36,604 bases of DNA, taken from assembly GCA_031556555.1 (NCBI GenBank), contig JAVBSU010000141.1:1-36604 (forward strand), given 5' to 3'. The position numbers and the translations under genes were made by a program. Numbering within the stretch: position 1 is the stretch's first letter; each line of letters opens with the position of its first letter. Below, piece after piece: positions 4,025 through 36,604 of this stretch. The DNA is from Christensenellaceae bacterium (GTDB lineage: Bacteria > Bacillota > Clostridia > Christensenellales > Christensenellaceae). The notes under the pieces are model-generated. The model did not search any database and was not told the origin of the DNA. It worked only from the letters and a program-made list of their open reading frames with translations.

Positions 4025-5224
4025 TTACCCGTCCTCCCCGCCCTTATTCCATGCCGCAACCGCCGCCCCGCTCACTTCTCCGAACGAAACGCCGTGCTTG
4101 CGCGCGGCTGCCGCAACGTCCTCGAATTCGGGCTTTATCTTGTCCGCGCCGTAGCCTTGATAGCGCTTTATCTTCACCTCTCCGTAAGCTGTGGAGACGG
4201 AGCTCAGACTGGAAGACATCACGTAGCGCTTGCACATGCCTACCCTAACGCCCGCCGTACTCGTATGCTTTAATATGAGAGCCGCCATCCGGCCGGCTTC
4301 ATTCTCCGCGCAAAGGCAGGTCAAAAGCGTGGCCTGCCGGTTTTTCTTCATCATTATGGGGGTGGTGAAAGCATCGAGCGCGCCCTCAACAAACAGCCGC
4401 TCCATTGCGAAACTTACCGCCTCGGGAGGCATGTCGTCCAGGTTGCAGCAAAGCTCGGCGATCACGCTGTGCGCGCCGCCCGCCTCGCCTATAAAAGCCC
4501 TCACGCAGTTCAGCAGGGCAAAATCCTTACTGCCCATGCCGTAGCCCAGCCTCTGCGCGGCAATCCGCGCGTCGTCCGTGAATTCATCAACAAAATGGCG
4601 CAACAGCGCGGCCCCTGTGGGCGTGCAAAGCTCCGCCTCGATCTTGCCCCGCCTCGACGGGATGCCGTTCAAAAGTTCGGCCGTTGCGGGCGCGGGCACG
4701 GGCAGCTCGCCGTGGCTGTTTTTTATGTGGCCGTAGCCTGTCACGACCTCGGACGCCATTATCCTGTCCGGCGCAAGTTCTTCTATCAAGAGGCAGAAGC
4801 CCGCTATGTCCATGACCGCGTCCATCGCCCCAAGCTCGTGGAAATGCACCTCTAATACGGGCACTCCATGCACTTTGGCTTCCGCGTCCGCCAGCAGCTT
4901 GTAGACGGCGGCGGTGTTCTCCTTTACGAAATCCGAAGCATTAAGCCTTTCTATTATGCTGCCGATATCGGCAGGCGTCCTTCCGCCGTGATCCGATGCC
5001 GCGGCCACGCCCTGTTTCTCTACCTGCCCGCCGATCGAAACGCTTACGCCGCTCCCCTCTATTCCCATCTTAGAGACGCGTTTATGCGTGACACGCGCGC
5101 CCGGCACGCCCAGCGCGTTCAGCTTTTCCACCGCGCGCCCGGCATCGGGCATAAGGTCTAACAGCGCGGCCATCAGCATGTCCCCGGACGCTCCCATCGC
5201 GCACTCAAGGTAGAGTGTTTTCAT
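4025..5224 (-). CDS. larC: LarC, nickel insertion (cyclometallase) protein for the nickel-pincer nucleotide cofactor (DUF111 family)
   Basis: The N-terminus LYLECAMGASGDMLMAALLDL matches the LarC/DUF111 signature. Length is 399 aa. It overlaps larB by 20 nt and abuts the glpK start. Confidence 0.85.
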   Translation of the reverse strand: MKTLYLECAMGASGDMLMAALLDLMPDAGRAVEKLNALGVPGARVTHKRVSKMGIEGSGVSVSIGGQVEKQGVAAASDHGGRTPADIGSIIERLNASDFVKENTAAVYKLLADAEAKVHGVPVLEVHFHELGAMDAVMDIAGFCLLIEELAPDRIMASEVVTGYGHIKNSHGELPVPAPATAELLNGIPSRRGKIEAELCTPTGAALLRHFVDEFTDDARIAAQRLGYGMGSKDFALLNCVRAFIGEAGGAHSVIAELCCNLDDMPPEAVSFAMERLFVEGALDAFTTPIMMKKNRQATLLTCLCAENEAGRMAALILKHTSTAGVRVGMCKRYVMSSSLSSVSTAYGEVKIKRYQGYGADKIKPEFEDVAAAARKHGVSFGEVSGAAVAAWNKGGEDG

Positions 5225-5972
5225 TATCTTCTCCTATGCGGTTTATCATGGCGGCCAGGTAGCCCGCGCCAAAACCGTTGTCTATATTCACCACGCTGAC
5301 CCCGCTCGAGCAGGAATTCAACATGGCTAAAAGCGCCGCCACCCCGCCGAAAGACGCGCCGTAACCCACGCTCGTGGGCACGGCTATCACAGGGCAGTCA
5401 CTGAGCCCGCCGACCACGCTGGCGAGCGCGCCCTCCATCCCCGCTACGGCTATCACGGCGTTCGCGCTCATTATTTCGTCCATGTGCGAAAGCAGCCTTT
5501 GCAGCCCAGCCACGCCCGCGTCGTACACGCGCGTGACTCTGCTGCCCAAAAGCTCGGCCGTGAGCGCGGCTTCCTCCGCTATGGGCATGTCGCTCGTACC
5601 GCCCGACGCGACGAGGACGCTTCCCCTGCCCGGCGGCATCCCGCCCACCCAGCCTATGCGGGAAATATCGCAGTAAGTGAAGTCGTGATGGCTTTTTACG
5701 AGTTCAGCGGCTTCTTCCGACATCTTTGTTATGATGACGGTCTTCTCGCCGTTTTCAACCATGGAATCGACTATACCGAGTATCTGCCCTGGCGTCTTGC
5801 CCATGCCGAATATCACTTCTGCCGCGCCCTGCCTGAGGCCCCTGTGGTGGTCCACTTTCGCGTACCCCAAATCCTCGAAGGGCTTAGCCTTTACGCGCAG
5901 CACCGCCTCGTCCGGTGTGAGCCCGCCGTCCCTCACGGCATTGAAGAGTTCTTTCAGTTCACGTTTATTCAT
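5205..5972 (-). CDS. larB: LarB, pyridinium-3,5-biscarboxylic acid mononucleotide synthase (PurE-like NaAD carboxylase/hydrolase)
   Basis: KVDHHRGLRQGAAEVIFGMGKTP is followed by a PurE-like GGTSDMPIAEEA block. It sits next to larC. Confidence 0.85.
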   Translation of the reverse strand: MNKRELKELFNAVRDGGLTPDEAVLRVKAKPFEDLGYAKVDHHRGLRQGAAEVIFGMGKTPGQILGIVDSMVENGEKTVIITKMSEEAAELVKSHHDFTYCDISRIGWVGGMPPGRGSVLVASGGTSDMPIAEEAALTAELLGSRVTRVYDAGVAGLQRLLSHMDEIMSANAVIAVAGMEGALASVVGGLSDCPVIAVPTSVGYGASFGGVAALLAMLNSCSSGVSVVNIDNGFGAGYLAAMINRIGEDNENTLP

Positions 5973-10161: not shown

Positions 10162-10968
10162 TTAAAGAACCTCGTTCATGCTGCCCCGGCGGTAGCCGCT
10201 AAGGTCGAGCGCCACGTAGGTAAAACCCAGTTCCTTAAGAAACGCGTCTATCTCTTTTGCCGCGTTTTTTTGGGTGAAGCCGGCGACTTCGTCCACGTTT
10301 ACTTCTATACGGGCCAGACCGCCGTGCACACGCACGCGCGCGTCCGCATAACCCAGGCCGTGCAAATAGCTTTCCGCCGCGTCCACCATCCTTAGTTTTT
10401 CTTCGCTTATGCGCTCGCCGTACACGAAGCGCGACGCCAGGCAGGCGTATGCGGGCTTGTCCCAGGTGCGCAGCCCAAGTTCGCGGGAGAGCGTTCTTAT
10501 TTCATCCTTGCCAAGGCCCGCGTCCTTAAGAGGGCTTAACAGCCCCAGTTCGGCAACGGCGCGCGCGCCCGGCCGGTAATCGGACTCGTCATCCGTATTG
10601 GAACCCTCGGCCAGGTTTTTAAAACCGTGCCCGCGGGCGATCTCTCTCGCCCTGCCCATCACGGCGCGCTTGCAGATGTAGCAACGGTCGGGCGGGTTTC
10701 CGGCAAAACCGTCGATCGTAAGCTCGTCCATGTCGAAAACAACTTGCTCAACGCCGTGCTCCTCCGCGAAGGCCCGGGCGCCGCCTATTTCCCAGCTCGG
10801 GGTGGAGCGCAGCCGCGCCGTTACCGCCAACACGTTACCGTTGAGCGCCATCTTAGCCGACTTCAATAAAAAAGCCGAATCCACGCCGCCCGAAAACGCT
10901 ACGGCAAGATTTTTTAGGCTTTTAAGGCTTTCCATCAGCTTTCTTTGTTTTTCGTTAATACTGTTCAT
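10162..10968 (-). CDS. larE: LarE, ATP-dependent sacrificial sulfur transferase (PP-loop ATP pyrophosphatase)
   Basis: It has the PP-loop AVAFSGGVDSAFLL and the conserved cysteine context YACLASRF. Length is 268 aa. Confidence 0.85.
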   Translation of the reverse strand: MNSINEKQRKLMESLKSLKNLAVAFSGGVDSAFLLKSAKMALNGNVLAVTARLRSTPSWEIGGARAFAEEHGVEQVVFDMDELTIDGFAGNPPDRCYICKRAVMGRAREIARGHGFKNLAEGSNTDDESDYRPGARAVAELGLLSPLKDAGLGKDEIRTLSRELGLRTWDKPAYACLASRFVYGERISEEKLRMVDAAESYLHGLGYADARVRVHGGLARIEVNVDEVAGFTQKNAAKEIDAFLKELGFTYVALDLSGYRRGSMNEVL

Positions 10969-11221: not shown

Positions 11222-12865
11222 ATGCCGATAACTGAGATATTGATCGAGAACGCAAAAAAATTTAGTGACGACATTTGCCTTGTGGAGCTTAATCCCGAGG
11301 TCCAGGAACATCACGAGAAAACCTGGAAGGAATATGAGCTCGTGGAACCGGGCATGGCAAAGGGCTACCGCTTTGAGATAACGTGGAAGGAATTCAACGA
11401 TAAAGCCAACCGCTTCGCCAACCACCTTCTCAGCAAGGGGATAGGCAAAGGCAACAAAGTCGCCGTGCTGCTCATGAACTGCCTGGAGTGGCTGCCCATT
11501 TACTTTGGCGTGCTAAAGACGGGCGCTGTCGTGGTTCCCATGAATTTCCGCTACACGGCGGACGAGATAAAGTACTGCCTCGAGCTTTCGGAATCGGACG
11601 CGCTTGTGTTCGGGCCGGAATTCTTAGAGAGGGTCTCGGGCATATGGGACAGCGTGCCGCGCGTCAAATATTTCTATTACGTCGACCTTTTAGGGGACAA
11701 TAGCTGCCCTTCCTTCGCGATGGACTACGATGAAACCGTTAAAGACGCTTCTACCGAAGAACCGGGAATACCCCTTTCGGACGATGAGGACGCGGCCATA
11801 TATTTCTCATCCGGAACAACGGGCTTTCCAAAGGCCATACTGCACACGCACAGCAGCCTCGTATCCGCCTGCGAAACCGAACAGAACCACCACTCCCAAA
11901 CAAAGGAAGACGTATTTTTGTGCATACCGCCCCTCTACCACACGGGCGCTAAAATGCACTGGTTCGGCAGCTTTCTTGTTGGCGGCAGGGCGGTAATACT
12001 GCGCGGCGTGAAGCCGAGGTGGATATTAAGGGCCGCTTCGGAGGAACAGGCCAGCATAGTTTGGCTCCTGGTACCCTGGGCGCAGGACATCCTGGACAGC
12101 ATAGAAAACGGCAAAATCAAGCTTGAAGACTATGACCTCGGTAATTGGCGGCTCATGCACATCGGGGCGCAGCCCGTGCCTCCCAGCCTCATAAAGCGCT
12201 GGCTGAAATACTTTCCCGATAACGAATACGATACTAACTACGGCCTGAGCGAGTCCACCGGCCCCGGCTGCGTGCACCTCGGTGTGGAGAACATAGCTAA
12301 AGTGGGCGCGATCGGCGTGCCCGGTTACAAATGGGAAGCTAAAATAGTTGACGAGGGCGGCGCGGAAGCCGCGCCCGGCGAAGTGGGCGAACTTATTGTA
12401 AGAGGCCCCGGCCTAATGAAGTGCTACTTCAACGACGAGGAAGCCACGGCCGCTTCGCTTAAGGACGGCTGGCTTTACACCGGCGACATGGCCAAGTGCG
12501 ACGACGGCTTCATATACCTTGTTGACCGCAAGAAGGACGTTATAATCTCGGGCGGCGAGAACATATACCCTGTGCAGATAGAAGACTTCCTGCACACTAA
12601 CGAGAACGTAAAGGACGTTGCGGTCATCGGCCTGCCCGACCACCGCCTCGGAGAGATAACCGCCGCCATACTAGAGCTCAAGGAAGGCGTTTCATGCACG
12701 GAAGAGGACATCGCCTACTTCTGTAAGGCGCTGCCAAGGTACAAGCGCCCGCGGCGGATAATCTTCGCCGAAGTCCCGAGAAACCTCACGGGCAAGATAG
12801 AAAAGCCCAAACTCCGGCAGACTTACTGCGGCGAATCGCTTGTCGAGGCGCAGACAAAAGGGTAA
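11222..12865 (+). CDS. AMP-dependent acyl-CoA synthetase/ligase (adenylate-forming class I)
   Basis: It has the AMP-binding motif YFSSGTTGFPKAILHTH, then GELIVRGPGLMKCYFND, YTGDMA and the C-terminal GKIEKPKL lysine motif. Confidence 0.85.
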   Translation: MPITEILIENAKKFSDDICLVELNPEVQEHHEKTWKEYELVEPGMAKGYRFEITWKEFNDKANRFANHLLSKGIGKGNKVAVLLMNCLEWLPIYFGVLKTGAVVVPMNFRYTADEIKYCLELSESDALVFGPEFLERVSGIWDSVPRVKYFYYVDLLGDNSCPSFAMDYDETVKDASTEEPGIPLSDDEDAAIYFSSGTTGFPKAILHTHSSLVSACETEQNHHSQTKEDVFLCIPPLYHTGAKMHWFGSFLVGGRAVILRGVKPRWILRAASEEQASIVWLLVPWAQDILDSIENGKIKLEDYDLGNWRLMHIGAQPVPPSLIKRWLKYFPDNEYDTNYGLSESTGPGCVHLGVENIAKVGAIGVPGYKWEAKIVDEGGAEAAPGEVGELIVRGPGLMKCYFNDEEATAASLKDGWLYTGDMAKCDDGFIYLVDRKKDVIISGGENIYPVQIEDFLHTNENVKDVAVIGLPDHRLGEITAAILELKEGVSCTEEDIAYFCKALPRYKRPRRIIFAEVPRNLTGKIEKPKLRQTYCGESLVEAQTKG

Positions 12866-33324: not shown

Positions 33325-34236
33325 ATGCCTGCTTTCCTTACTCACATGATAATGGCGAATGGCACGCTCGCCAGGATTGAAAACGAAAGAGTGAAAAGCC
33401 TTATATCCTCAAACCTGGCCGCCTACCATTCGGGCGCCCAGGGCGGGGATTATTTTTACCTGTACAAGTATTACTCCATGTGGCTGGGCCACACGTACAA
33501 AATGTTCGGTTACGCGCTGCACAGGGCGCGGCTGCAACGTTTTTTCACGGAAAGCGCTCAGTACATAAAAAACAGCGGTTCCGATACGCTGGCTTCTTTT
33601 TTTTACGGTTACATTACCCACTATTATCTGGATATGCTGCTGCATCCCGCCATAAACGCCGTCGCCCCCGACGCAATGGGCAACCACAACACGCTTGAAT
33701 ACGCCATTGATACTGTTTACGCGCGGGAAAACGGCATAGACGCCATGGAATTCGACCGGGCCGCCTTCGTACATGAGACGACGGTTAAGGACGGCTCCAT
33801 AAGCAGGTTCTTCGAGCACATAAAAAAGGAGCTTTACTATGGCTTCAGGCTCAAGCCGCACGCTTATGAAACGTGCTACGCGTATTTTGAATCGTACAAC
33901 AGAAAAATGTACAAGCCGGACGAAAAGCAGCTTAAGTGGATGAAGTTCCAGAACAAATTCACCATGCTGGACCTTTTCACCATGCTCTACCACCCGTACG
34001 ATGAAATCAAAGACCTCTACGATTACGCGCCTTACCTCGAACTTATTGAAAAGGCAATAAAAAAAAGCCTTGAGCTGATAAATAACGTGGACGGCTACCT
34101 GCACGATGAGCGGCATATATCGGTTATTGAATCTTTTGTTTTCAACGTGAACTGCAACGGCATACCCGTAATTCCAAGGGAGGAACGCAAAGCTTTCCAG
34201 CGCCTCTACAAAAAGGCCCGGCTAAAACTGTTTTGA
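33325..34236 (+). CDS. Zinc-dependent phospholipase C-like family protein (uncharacterised)
   Basis: It has N-terminal PAFLTH, GAQGGDYFY and THYYLDMLLHP histidine blocks, as in the clostridial proteins annotated in this family. The ATG directly follows the tag stop codon. Confidence 0.55.
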   Translation: MPAFLTHMIMANGTLARIENERVKSLISSNLAAYHSGAQGGDYFYLYKYYSMWLGHTYKMFGYALHRARLQRFFTESAQYIKNSGSDTLASFFYGYITHYYLDMLLHPAINAVAPDAMGNHNTLEYAIDTVYARENGIDAMEFDRAAFVHETTVKDGSISRFFEHIKKELYYGFRLKPHAYETCYAYFESYNRKMYKPDEKQLKWMKFQNKFTMLDLFTMLYHPYDEIKDLYDYAPYLELIEKAIKKSLELINNVDGYLHDERHISVIESFVFNVNCNGIPVIPREERKAFQRLYKKARLKLF

Positions 34237-34461
34237 CGCTACCGCCCTTTCAACATAACGTTCCAGGTCGGAAACAGTGACAAAGTACTTAATGCTGGAT
34301 TCCGACACAAGGATATCGTACGCCGCTTCCAGCGCAAACGTAAGCTCAAGCATTTCATATGAGCCTATATTAAGCTCCCTGATCAAATCGCTGTCCGGCC
34401 TGATATCCTCTGCAGGCGTTTCACTAAACGCCGAAACGATGTCCGCTATCTCTCTGAACAT
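34222..34461 (-). CDS. Stand-alone acyl/peptidyl carrier protein, DltC-like
   Basis: 79 aa. The phosphopantetheine-site context is ELNIGSYEMLELTFALEAAYDILV (compare DltC LLDSFGTVELLLAIENRFDILV as I remember it). Confidence 0.65.
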   Translation of the reverse strand: MFREIADIVSAFSETPAEDIRPDSDLIRELNIGSYEMLELTFALEAAYDILVSESSIKYFVTVSDLERYVERAVASKQF

Positions 34462-34469
34462 AATACAAG

Positions 34470-34478
34470 ATTATATCA
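34470..34478 (-). promoter_or_regulatory. Candidate extended -10 promoter giving a near-leaderless carrier-protein mRNA
   Basis: The minus strand reads TGATATAAT (34470-34478), then 8 nt (cttgtatt, no SD) before the ATG at 34461. Confidence 0.35.
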
Positions 34479-34494
34479 TTTGTGGGAAAACCTA

Positions 34495-35754
34495 TCAACC
34501 AAATGTTCTTATATTAAAAATATCCATATCCAAAATGTCCCTGTTCCAGTACGAATAGAGGGAGTGTATAAGGCTTAGAAAAGCGCCGCCCAGCTTTTCA
34601 GCGGCTGCCCCGCTTATGAAATCTCCCGAACAGCGCAGGAAAATGTGCCCCATCTCGCCGCGCCCCCCGACGTTTACGAATACCTCGAGGGGATACATGG
34701 CTCCGCTGCCAATGGACAGTTCAGCCTGGGACGGGAATCCGTAGCCGCTGATATCCGATACGGCCACGCTCATTAGCCCTTCCGTATCAAGGCCGCGCGC
34801 CCGCATATCCGCCGCTACGTTTTGGATGCCGTAGCGCCCCGCGGCCGATGCCTGCGCTATACTCTCCCTGAAACTGTCCACCGCCCGGCCAAGGCTGCCT
34901 TTAGCCAGGTTGTTGAACGGCAGGGGAACAGTATCCACCATGTGGCCCAGTATGGAGCGCGTCGTGGCGTCGCGTCCGTTCCTCGTGTAGCACATGCCTA
35001 CGTCTCCCCGCCCCGTGTACAATTCCAGCACGCAGTGCCAGCACAAGGCCGCCAGGCCGAAAACCGTCATGCGGTGGTCGGCGCAAAGCTGAAGATATTC
35101 CAGCCGTAGCGGCTCATCCATGTTTAGCACGTATACAAAATCGTCACCGCCCGGCCCGCCTTCCAAAAGATCAAACATGTGAGCCGGCGCTTTTATCAGC
35201 CTCGCCCATGCCTCGCCGTCTTCTCTTCGCCTGGCGGACTTTAAGTATTCGCGTTCGCTCTCCGCGTACGCATCGTAGGAGCCGGAAGGGTAGAACAGTG
35301 CTTCGCGCCCGGCCGCATCATCGTCCAATACGTCTTTTATCACTGACAGCGAATAAGCGTCCGTCACCAGGGAATCGGACTTTATGAAAGCCCTGAGCGC
35401 GTCCCCGTACCGGAGCATGTAAAAACGGCAGAGCGCGCCGTCCAAAGGATCGCACACCCTGCCGTTCTGTTCTACTATCCATTCAAACGCAGCCGCCTGC
35501 CCGCTGAATTCCAAAAACTCAGGCGTACCGGCGGGCGCGTAACCGTACTCCGCGCCGCCGCCCTCTTCGCGAAAAGCCATACCCAGCGCGTCGTTACGTT
35601 CCGCCAACCGCGCTATGGAGCTTTCAAGGCGGCTTTTCCCCTGTGCGGAAAAGGGCATGCCGTCCGTGAGCATTGACAGGTTTGAAAAGTTCGAATCTCT
35701 TCTTTTCAGCCTTCTTTCCCACGTAAGGCGCTGGCCGGTGGTGAGCCCGCCCAT
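34495..35754 (-). CDS. Free-standing NRPS-type condensation-domain protein with a degenerate catalytic motif
   Basis: C-domain core motifs appear in order: C1 LTTGQRLTW, C2 LAERNDALGMAF, C3 region FIKSDSLVTDAYS, C4 YDAYAESEREYL and C5 ILGHMVDTVPLPF. In C3 the HHxxxDG histidines are replaced by D and S. Confidence 0.6.
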   Translation of the reverse strand: MGGLTTGQRLTWERRLKRRDSNFSNLSMLTDGMPFSAQGKSRLESSIARLAERNDALGMAFREEGGGAEYGYAPAGTPEFLEFSGQAAAFEWIVEQNGRVCDPLDGALCRFYMLRYGDALRAFIKSDSLVTDAYSLSVIKDVLDDDAAGREALFYPSGSYDAYAESEREYLKSARRREDGEAWARLIKAPAHMFDLLEGGPGGDDFVYVLNMDEPLRLEYLQLCADHRMTVFGLAALCWHCVLELYTGRGDVGMCYTRNGRDATTRSILGHMVDTVPLPFNNLAKGSLGRAVDSFRESIAQASAAGRYGIQNVAADMRARGLDTEGLMSVAVSDISGYGFPSQAELSIGSGAMYPLEVFVNVGGRGEMGHIFLRCSGDFISGAAAEKLGGAFLSLIHSLYSYWNRDILDMDIFNIRTFG

Positions 35755-36278
35755 TACTTCGTCTCGAACGGGATATCCTTGGAGAGCTCGAAGTGGCCGG
35801 TGGTATAATCCTTGCCCTCTACGCTGTAGTAGATTTCGTTCACATCGGGAAGGTTATCGAGGTAGGCGCCAGCTATGCTTTCAAGAAGAGTGGCTTCGCC
35901 CGCCGTGCCAAAATTAGATTCGTATATCTTGTCTGTAAAATCTATGTATAGTTTGCCGCCCTCAACAATTATTGAGTTGGGATTTATGGGCGACTCCTCA
36001 AGAGGCAGGTCGAACATTTCTTCCGCCACAACCTCAAGGCCGAAGGTAGCCAGGCTCGCGGGCGACACCTGCACCTCAATCGTCTTGTCCGCGTCCGTCA
36101 CTATATTGTGATAAGTGTACTTGACCGTGTTGTCCTCGTACTCCAACTTTTGTATCCGGGGAGGAACCTCATCCTTCGCGGTAGCCGGGGCAAAGGCGCA
36201 GAGCATGAACGAAGCCGCTATCAGAACGGCGGCGAGCGCCACTCCAAGTATCCTGCTGCTTTTTCTCACAGTATCCAT
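35754..36278 (-). CDS. GerMN-domain-like exported or anchored protein
   Basis: It has an N-terminal signal/anchor (ILGVALAAVLIAASFMLCAFA). The C-terminal half, LYIDFTDKIYESNFGTAGEATLLESIAGAYLDNLPDVNEIYYSVEGKDY, resembles the GerMN pattern. GGAGG lies 8 nt upstream. Its stop overlaps the next ATG (TAATG). Confidence 0.55.
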   Translation of the reverse strand: MDTVRKSSRILGVALAAVLIAASFMLCAFAPATAKDEVPPRIQKLEYEDNTVKYTYHNIVTDADKTIEVQVSPASLATFGLEVVAEEMFDLPLEESPINPNSIIVEGGKLYIDFTDKIYESNFGTAGEATLLESIAGAYLDNLPDVNEIYYSVEGKDYTTGHFELSKDIPFETK

Positions 36279-36462
36279 ATCGTAAACCTCCTTGCGGTAA
36301 ACGCTTTCCTGATTTTTCCTGTATTTCCTGCATGAATATTATATCACGGTTTTCGCGGCCAGACAATACATTTATTAAGTAAATATTACAAAGTTGTTCA
36401 CAAAAAATTCAAATCTTACGGGGTTTCGGGCCGAAGAAATTGTAGAATTGACGCTGCGGCTG

Positions 36463-36471
36463 TGATATAAT
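36463..36471 (+). promoter_or_regulatory. Candidate extended -10 promoter for a gene starting near the window end
   Basis: TGATATAAT lies at 36463-36471, about 65 nt upstream of a GAGGA-N7-TTG start. Confidence 0.35.
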
Positions 36472-36536
36472 TGCATTGTCTGTCAGAGGCATTTAAAAGG
36501 TAGAATACCAGATATTGCAAGAAAGAGGATTTGTGT

Positions 36537-36604
36537 TTGGCTGTGCAGGAGATATTACCGTTTAAGTCGAATTTTGTAAGAGTCGGATCTCTCGATACGG
36601 GCGG
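36537..36604 (+). CDS. Possible 5' end of an unidentified CDS (LAVQEILPFKSNFVRVGSLDTG...)
   Basis: The frame is open from the TTG at 36537 to the window edge, with AGAAAGAGGA 7 nt upstream. It is too short to identify. Confidence 0.25.
   Translation, partial: MAVQEILPFKSNFVRVGSLDTG

Follow-up and report, generated by a model that had tools for sequence, protein, structure and literature searches.

The 36.6-kb stretch of DNA analysed here (referred to as the window) is the entire contig JAVBSU010000141.1 of a Christensenellaceae bacterium, and on its minus strand it carries a three-gene operon (34222–36278) in which a free-standing condensation-fold protein, referred to as the C-like protein, is encoded next to a small free carrier protein. 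Gene 1 (36278–35754, minus strand) is an open reading frame (ORF) of 174 aa, gene 2 (35754–34495, minus strand) encodes the C-like protein (419 aa), and gene 3 (34461–34222, minus strand) encodes the carrier, a 79-aa protein of acyl carrier protein (ACP) type. The TAA stop codon of gene 1 and the ATG of gene 2 have base 35754 in common (TAATG), and the spacer between the gene 2 stop and the gene 3 ATG measures 33 nt, not the 34 nt given in a preliminary description of the locus. The other elements of that description (three genes, the TAATG overlap, a DSLVTDA motif in the C-like protein, the 79-aa carrier and a TGATATAAT box) are all real, as judged from the ORFs and from direct reading.

The C-like protein matches the Pfam Condensation family (PF00668) over residues 41–330 at 52 bits (E = 6e-14; cut-off 30.6 bits), and the condensation core motifs C1 to C5 are recognisable in it, in order. 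An AlphaFold2 (AF2) model of the full-length protein, generated from a 19-sequence alignment, is confident (pLDDT 90.9, pTM 0.90). In comparisons with Foldseek it matches solved condensation (C) domains with TM scores of 0.78–0.84 over ~430 columns and E-values down to 3e-26, and the best bidirectional structural match is the starter C domain of RzmA (TM 0.84/0.82). By both AF2 and Foldseek the model has the two-lobed, V-shaped fold typified by chloramphenicol acetyltransferase. The 419-aa protein is therefore a full condensation-fold protein, as previously proposed from its motifs; the family score lies above threshold, and the predicted structure agrees with solved C domains.

Active-site motif and relatives of the C-like protein

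In place of the HHxxxDG motif of C domains the C-like protein has D127-S-L-V-T-D-A133 (codons at 35376–35356, minus strand), placed by HMMER alignment to HHLVVDG of bacitracin synthase 3, and the second His of the motif is thus Ser128. Across the family alignment neither the Asp of the motif (D132) nor the Arg that pairs with it (R261) varies. P0002, the nearest relative, has D-T-L-I-A-D-A at this site, with Thr replacing the second His. Between the two proteins the three most conserved 15-residue windows, each 73% identical as against 39% overall, are residues 129–143 (C3 motif), residues 256–270 (the NGRD loop, with R261) and a helix at residues 235–249. Because the altered motif is also found in the nearest relative, and because the C3 region is among the most conserved windows, the His-less active-site region is still under constraint and does not belong to a decaying one-off copy. 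The preliminary description had left room for such a copy, should close relatives keep an intact HHxxxDG, and had raised the question of whether the HH-to-DS change recurs; the loss of the His does recur, in P0002. The same description had called the protein catalytically degenerate, which is not a safe inference from loss of the His, because several C domains are still active after mutation of this residue, according to a review that names VibH among them (its reference 45), and because cyclization (Cy) domains, which have DxxxxD, do without that His altogether. Both Asp residues of DxxxxD are essential in Cy domains, according to the same review.

Relatives of the C-like protein (P0001 in the alignments) were sought in several ways. 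An exhaustive HMMER search of 1.84 billion representative proteins gave just three sequences below E = 1e-27 (P0002, P0003 and P0004), each of them a singleton cluster. A word-indexed homologue search returned only the protein itself when the single sequence was used, and only P0004 and the protein itself with a four-sequence profile; an exact look-up of the window protein found it on no other contig, and scans of a genome collection and of metagenomes with an alignment of P0001 and P0002 yielded no relative.

P0002 (405 aa, 40% identity to the C-like protein) is free-standing, and its locus (L001) has the gene order fba / C-like, Sfp-type phosphopantetheinyl transferase (PPTase), 80-aa ACP / hsp20, with overlapping gene ends and no adenylation (A) gene in the P0002 operon. 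Surveying the neighbourhoods of homologues, as the preliminary description had suggested, thus shows that the pairing of C-like protein and carrier recurs in L001, again without an adenylation gene, while the GerMN-like gene (gene 1, named in that description after the Germane family) does not recur there. P0003 (30% identity) is the N-terminal C domain, with the motif SHLVSDG in which the second His is kept, of a nonribosomal peptide synthetase (NRPS) of domain order C-A-T-C-A-T-C-A-T-R, and is the only one of the clade members to be embedded in an NRPS; the product of the PPTase gene that follows it is 47% identical to the L001 PPTase. At this locus (L005, 12997–15855) the NRPS and PPTase genes are followed by an anti-sigma-factor-type module (HATPase_c_2 kinase, STAS protein and SpoIIE phosphatase), an unusual neighbourhood for an NRPS. 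P0004 (26% identity) is free-standing and His-less, with the motif NYIFFDG. Its gene (in L003, 8084–11287) is the last in a string encoding a MaoC dehydratase, an enoyl-CoA hydratase and a DUF6125 protein, divergent from a methylmalonyl-CoA-mutase/MeaB/thiolase operon with a sigma-54 activator, and these neighbours hint that the clade may handle acyl-CoA-derived substrates.

In a rough neighbour-joining (NJ) tree, not a maximum-likelihood one, with 200 bootstraps, the four proteins form a clade with 100% support, and P0007, an N-terminal C domain with a canonical HH, is their sister (96%). The clade is nested among starter-position (N-terminal) C domains, and the top matches outside the clade are likewise N-terminal C domains; it branches from starter-position C domains that keep the HH.

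The carrier, gene 1 and the surrounding contig

The carrier matches the PP-binding family (PF00550) at 25.2 bits (cut-off 20.8), with a phosphopantetheine site at Ser34 (IGSYEM; nt 34362–34360, minus strand) that aligns with the DSL serine of the ACPs of fatty-acid synthases (FAS). Comparison with the FAS ACP of S. coelicolor gives E = 4e-7 versus E = 0.25 for DltC (4bpg), and the NCBIfam matches of the carrier, the best of them included, are all AcpP-type ACP families, with no DltC family among them. The carrier is, on these comparisons, ACP-like and neither a peptidyl carrier protein (PCP) nor a DltC, and its earlier description as DltC-like is true of its size only. It scores under the equivalog cut-offs for AcpP itself, which points to a specialised ACP and not the housekeeping one. 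Identity is 27% to OaaACP, the ACP of a fatty acid amide (FAA) system discussed below, and 28% to the 80-aa ACP of L001, and an unusual helix II sequence, S-Y-[ED]-x-x-E-L, is common to the window carrier and the L001 protein.

In both carriers a Tyr directly follows the phosphopantetheine Ser (G-S-Y-E-M-L-E-L, residues 33–40 of the window carrier; S-S-Y-D-V-T-E-L, encoded at 2841–3083 of L001), at a position where ACPs usually have Leu or Met. This Tyr could possibly be a recognition signature for the C-like partner.

An origin of the free carriers as excised T domains of an NRPS was considered and rejected, as the free carrier has no similarity to the T domains of the P0003 NRPS. The position of the Sfp-type PPTase gene between the C and ACP genes of L001 gives indirect support to the view that the carrier is a real, phosphopantetheinylated component of a thiotemplate system. 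Scans for defence systems and phage families were negative except for a generic phage ACP match.

The gene 1 product carries at its N-terminus a hydrophobic helix of signal or anchor type. Its match to the Germane family (PF10646) reaches 18.8 bits (E = 0.0026), under the cut-off of 23, and covers the C-terminal half of the profile only. The one homologue found, P0152 (53% identity), has no Germane match, and the gene that comes after its own encodes a GT2 glycosyltransferase, not a C-like protein. A two-sequence profile of gene 1 searched against the PDB retrieved no GerM structure, and the AF2 model built from the two sequences is poor (pLDDT 48). A gene 1-like neighbour is also absent at the P0002 locus. 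Gene 1 is probably co-expressed with the other two genes here but lies outside the conserved module. The GerMN label, and the link to the cell envelope or spore that had been drawn from it, are not upheld, with the Germane match sub-threshold and missing from P0152 and the linkage of gene 1 to the C-like gene conserved in neither direction. LeuB of the window is nearest to Christensenella, with 72% identity to the protein of Christensenella tenuis and 71% to that of C. hongkongensis, which suggests a Christensenellales-like member of the Clostridia; the genus is described as non-spore-forming, and this further weakens the spore-surface idea.

A Shine-Dalgarno sequence (GGAGG; 36287–36291, minus strand), found by direct reading, precedes the ATG of gene 1 by 8 nt, and ~60 nt upstream of this ATG is a site that resembles a promoter for the operon, TTGTCT-17-TGnTATAAT (36338–36366, minus strand); it agrees with 10 of 12 consensus positions and has the TG extension, and is put forward as a consensus match only. 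A second, putative internal promoter of the extended -10 type (TTGATA-N14-TGA-TATAAT, the TGATATAAT box; 34498–34470, minus strand; 11/12 consensus match) overlaps the gene 2 stop and ends 8 nt before the carrier ATG. It is the sole match to the extended sigma-70 consensus in the window, where 0.01 would be expected by chance. Because this promoter consensus ends so close to the ATG, and direct reading finds no Shine-Dalgarno sequence between the two, the arrangement suggests that the carrier may also be transcribed alone, independently of the upstream genes, as a leaderless or very-short-leader mRNA. G+C content is sharply uneven inside the operon (~0.60 in the C-like gene, ~0.51 in gene 1 and ~0.45 in the carrier gene).

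Downstream, the operon meets a convergent gene for a zinc-dependent phospholipase-C-like protein (33325–34236, plus strand; PF00882, E = 6e-11), the 3′ end of which overlaps that of gene 3 by 15 nt (34222–34236). No terminator-like hairpin was found in 33900–36604, and an Rfam scan of the window gave no match. On the other side, ~260 nt upstream of gene 1, a divergent ORF (LAVQEILPFKSNFVRVGSLDTG...; 36537–36604, plus strand) begins behind an AGAGGA ribosome-binding site and runs off the end of the contig. Elsewhere in the window (4025–5972 and 10162–10968, minus strand) are genes for a LarC-like nickel insertion protein, a LarB-like protein (AIR carboxylase family) and a LarE-like PP-loop ATPase, which by Pfam families only correspond to the pathway for the nickel-pincer cofactor of lactate racemase; they adjoin a gene for a glycerol-kinase-like FGGY kinase.

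A possible two-component acyl-transfer module

The operon contains no A domain, thioesterase, PPTase or membrane-bound O-acyltransferase (MBOAT), and neither a PPTase nor a second carrier is encoded anywhere in the window. A free-standing fatty-acid adenylating enzyme is likewise missing from the operon, from the 21 kb around it and from L001, the search in the window ending at the contig end, 326 nt upstream of gene 1. The contig encodes a single adenylate-forming enzyme, a stand-alone member of the ANL superfamily (11222–12865, plus strand), ~21 kb from the operon. Its best match is to the subfamily of long-chain-fatty-acid-CoA ligases (403.7 bits, short of the 476 cut-off), and it has 24% identity to OaaA, the adenylating enzyme of the FAA system, which is ordinary superfamily similarity. 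It is a possible candidate for loading the carrier in trans, though nothing ties it to the operon. In principle, FabD and the FAS machinery, or an acyl-ACP synthetase with its gene elsewhere, could also charge an ACP-type carrier. The absence of a loader from the operon is real and conserved, and to this extent the earlier statement that there is no adenylation partner holds, both here and for the L001 operon; it does not hold as proof of a loader-free system, given the nearby contig end and the distant ANL enzyme.

We tentatively favour, with a confidence falling a little short of evenly balanced, the reading that the C-like protein and the carrier constitute a two-component, acyl-ACP-dependent acyltransferase that derives from starter C domains, has a conserved change of His to Ser/Thr and is loaded in trans. 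The reading starts from what is directly supported, namely the condensation fold, the pairing of the two genes, the conservation of both the pair and the altered motif, the starter-type ancestry and the ACP character of the carrier, and from these we infer a catalytic activity, an acyl donor, a soluble acceptor and in-trans loading. Genes 2 and 3 would then be a minimal two-component acyl-transfer module, in which the carrier would be phosphopantetheinylated by a PPTase encoded elsewhere and would receive its acyl group in trans, either from a fatty-acyl-AMP ligase or acyl-ACP synthetase encoded elsewhere or from the housekeeping fatty-acid synthase. The C-like protein would take the acyl-carrier at its donor side and pass its acyl group on to a nucleophile free of any carrier, most likely an amine, so that an N-acyl (or O-acyl) product is released, by the same logic as in VibH and OaaC. 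Its lineage would go back to lipoinitiation (starter) C domains, with the second His, which positions the acceptor, exchanged for Ser or Thr and with the motif Asp and its partner Arg retained.

Several observations weigh against this reading. Activity without the second His is unproven, since that residue is >99% conserved in the C domains of FAA pathways (C_FAA; a starter-related clade with the motif (D/H)HxxxD(S/A/G)) and is kept by nearly all of the nearest representatives: among the 150 nearest it is present in essentially all sequences that align at the motif, the window protein, P0002 and P0004 being the clear exceptions. No loading enzyme is encoded in either operon, that of the window or that of L001, and OaaC is unable to use acyl-CoA directly, so the C-plus-ACP logic needs a loader. 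The pair of C-like protein and ACP is found at two loci only, the window and L001, and no carrier gene lies near P0004.

The same features may also be read as those of a non-catalytic carrier-binding protein, a scaffold, chaperone or regulator that docks or sequesters (acyl-)ACP or recruits another enzyme in the way that X-domains recruit P450s. The second His is gone from P0001, P0002 and P0004, whereas almost all other relatives have it; both operons are devoid of loading and releasing enzymes; and the X-domains of glycopeptide synthetases, established in a review as a precedent for inactive C folds, include a good structural match to the C-like protein (4tx2). However, conservation within the protein is highest in the altered motif and the active-site loops next to it, which would be unexpected if a docking surface alone mattered, D132 and R261 are kept, and no candidate for a recruited enzyme is conserved alongside; we regard a purely binding function as possible and on the unlikely side.

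We consider it improbable that the operon is the remnant of an NRPS-type or FAA-type cluster that has lost its A domain or modules and is still expressed without a biosynthetic role. The extreme rarity of the family, the absence of an A gene and the nature of the nearest multidomain relative, the C-A-T-C-A-T-C-A-T-R NRPS with its related PPTase, would all fit such a history. Yet all ORFs are intact and the structural model is confident and complete, the pair and the motif D-[ST]-L-x-x-D-A-Y-S persist across 40% identity and two unrelated genomic contexts, the free carriers are not excised T domains of NRPS type, and the carrier gene has a strong promoter consensus of its own.

The arrangement proposed in the preliminary description, in which an exported GerMN-like protein, the C-like protein and a DltC-like carrier together modify the envelope or spore surface in a Dlt-like manner, is very unlikely. 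The TAATG overlap does imply co-translation of genes 1 and 2, gene 1 has its hydrophobic N-terminal signal or anchor, and the carrier is of DltC size, but the carrier is ACP-like, the C-like protein and the carrier have no export signals, and no MBOAT, DltA or DltD accompanies them. The Germane match that would make gene 1 part of such a system is sub-threshold and absent in its homologue, the linkage of gene 1 is unconserved in either direction, and the nearest LeuB (72%) is that of Christensenella, a genus without spore formation according to its description. A Cy-type (cyclization) enzyme is scarcely credible, even with DxxxxDxxS matched by both P0001 (DSLVTDAYS) and P0002 (DTLIADAYS), as the 36 solved structures matched by sequence and the 50 best fold matches include no Cy domain, DxxxxD is present in none of the 150 nearest representatives, the clade is nested among HH-bearing starter-position C domains, and the carrier is of ACP type with no Cys/Ser/Thr-loading A domain. 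Cy ancestry was rejected on this sequence, structure and tree evidence, and the likeness would be convergent at best.

If the two-component acyltransferase reading is taken further, starter C domains could here have given rise, independently and for the third time, to free-standing acyltransferases. Such a module would work without the second His or a dedicated adenylating enzyme, might use an Asp127/Ser-Thr128 mechanism and an ACP charged by primary fatty-acid synthesis, and would supply gut anaerobes of Christensenellales-like type with N- or O-acyl metabolites of a new class. We hold this extended version to be a long shot. Its mechanism might involve a covalent acyl-O-enzyme intermediate or, alternatively, Asp-assisted positioning of the nucleophile as in Cy domains.

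Free-standing C plus ACP modules of gut Clostridia make host-active N-acyl amides that act as ligands of G-protein-coupled receptors. A sister lineage that does without both the His and a clustered adenylating enzyme would, if active, be a natural test of the long-debated need for the histidine in condensation with soluble acceptors. The lineage also shows that stand-alone enzymes have come out of starter C domains on more than one occasion. If inactive, the C-like protein would be a pseudo-C domain that stands free and has been retained with its carrier, a rare case among bacteria. Small biosynthetic loci like that of the window are probably missed by mining rules that require an A domain or HHxxxDG.

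Comparison with known systems

The Dlt system (DltA/DltB/DltC/DltD) shares with the operon only a small carrier of similar size. A C-fold protein is no part of Dlt, and conversely the operon has no ligase, MBOAT or DltD, with none of DltA, the MBOAT DltB or DltD encoded anywhere in the window. X-domains, such as that of teicoplanin Tcp12 (PDB 4TX2), combine a C fold with a degenerate active-site motif and are structurally similar to the C-like protein (Foldseek rank 35), but they are embedded in NRPS, have HRxxxDD-type motifs and recruit P450s, a context of which the window has no trace.

Starter C domains (RzmA-Cs, PDB 7C1H/7C1L; CDA-C1) use acyl-thioester donors and are the nearest neighbours of the C-like protein in both sequence and structure. 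They differ in being embedded in NRPS modules, in acylating a PCP-bound amino acid and in keeping HHxxxDG, whereas the window protein is free-standing and has no acceptor module. VibH, the vibriobactin amide synthase (PDB 1L5A), ranks second by sequence among the solved structures matched (E = 5e-15 to the clade profile). As is proposed for the C-like protein, this C domain stands alone, receives its acyl donor from a separate carrier and has a soluble amine as acceptor. VibH keeps HHxxxDG, however, and its aryl carrier VibB is loaded by a dedicated A enzyme, VibE, in a siderophore cluster.

The closest known analogue is the FAA system of gut Clostridia, which comprises a free-standing C domain, an ACP and a fatty-acid adenylating enzyme. 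Characterised pathways are OaaC/OaaACP/OaaA of Coprococcus eutactus and ebf/ecf of Enterocloster (Chang et al. 2021; Singh, Grant & Gulick 2026, PMC13310621; Elmassry et al., PMC10871352). In these systems the three components, with OaaC as the C domain, produce fatty acid amides; ebf/ecf have genes for a PPTase, a hydrolase and an SCP2-like protein as well. As in the window and at the P0002 locus, a free-standing C domain adjoins a free-standing ACP (~80 aa) in Clostridia; starter C ancestry and the residues at motif positions 1 (Asp) and 7 (Ala or Ser) are also common to both, and the related locus L001 has a PPTase in its cluster, as do ebf/ecf. The window and L001 loci differ in that no adenylating enzyme is found in the operon, the position-2 His of C_FAA is Ser in the window protein and Thr in P0002, and genes for SCP2-like and hydrolase proteins are missing.

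With C_FAA represented by one sequence, OaaC (from a preprint supplement), and compared by sequence only, its structure (PDB 12KH) not being among those retrieved from the structure libraries, OaaC matches the C-like protein at a BLASTP E-value of 3.5, ranks 151/151 against the clade profile, has an hhalign probability of 5% and groups with the clade in 0/200 bootstraps. Membership of the C-like protein in C_FAA was rejected, with the second His lacking from its motif and no sequence or tree grouping with OaaC. The best reading by analogy is that it may work like an FAA-type or VibH-type enzyme while not belonging to C_FAA. The term undescribed, used for the system in the preliminary description, goes too far, as acyl transfer by a free-standing C domain and an ACP has already been characterised in gut Clostridia (OaaC, OaaACP and OaaA). 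The locus is a divergent and rare variant of the FAA logic, and not a wholly new kind of system.

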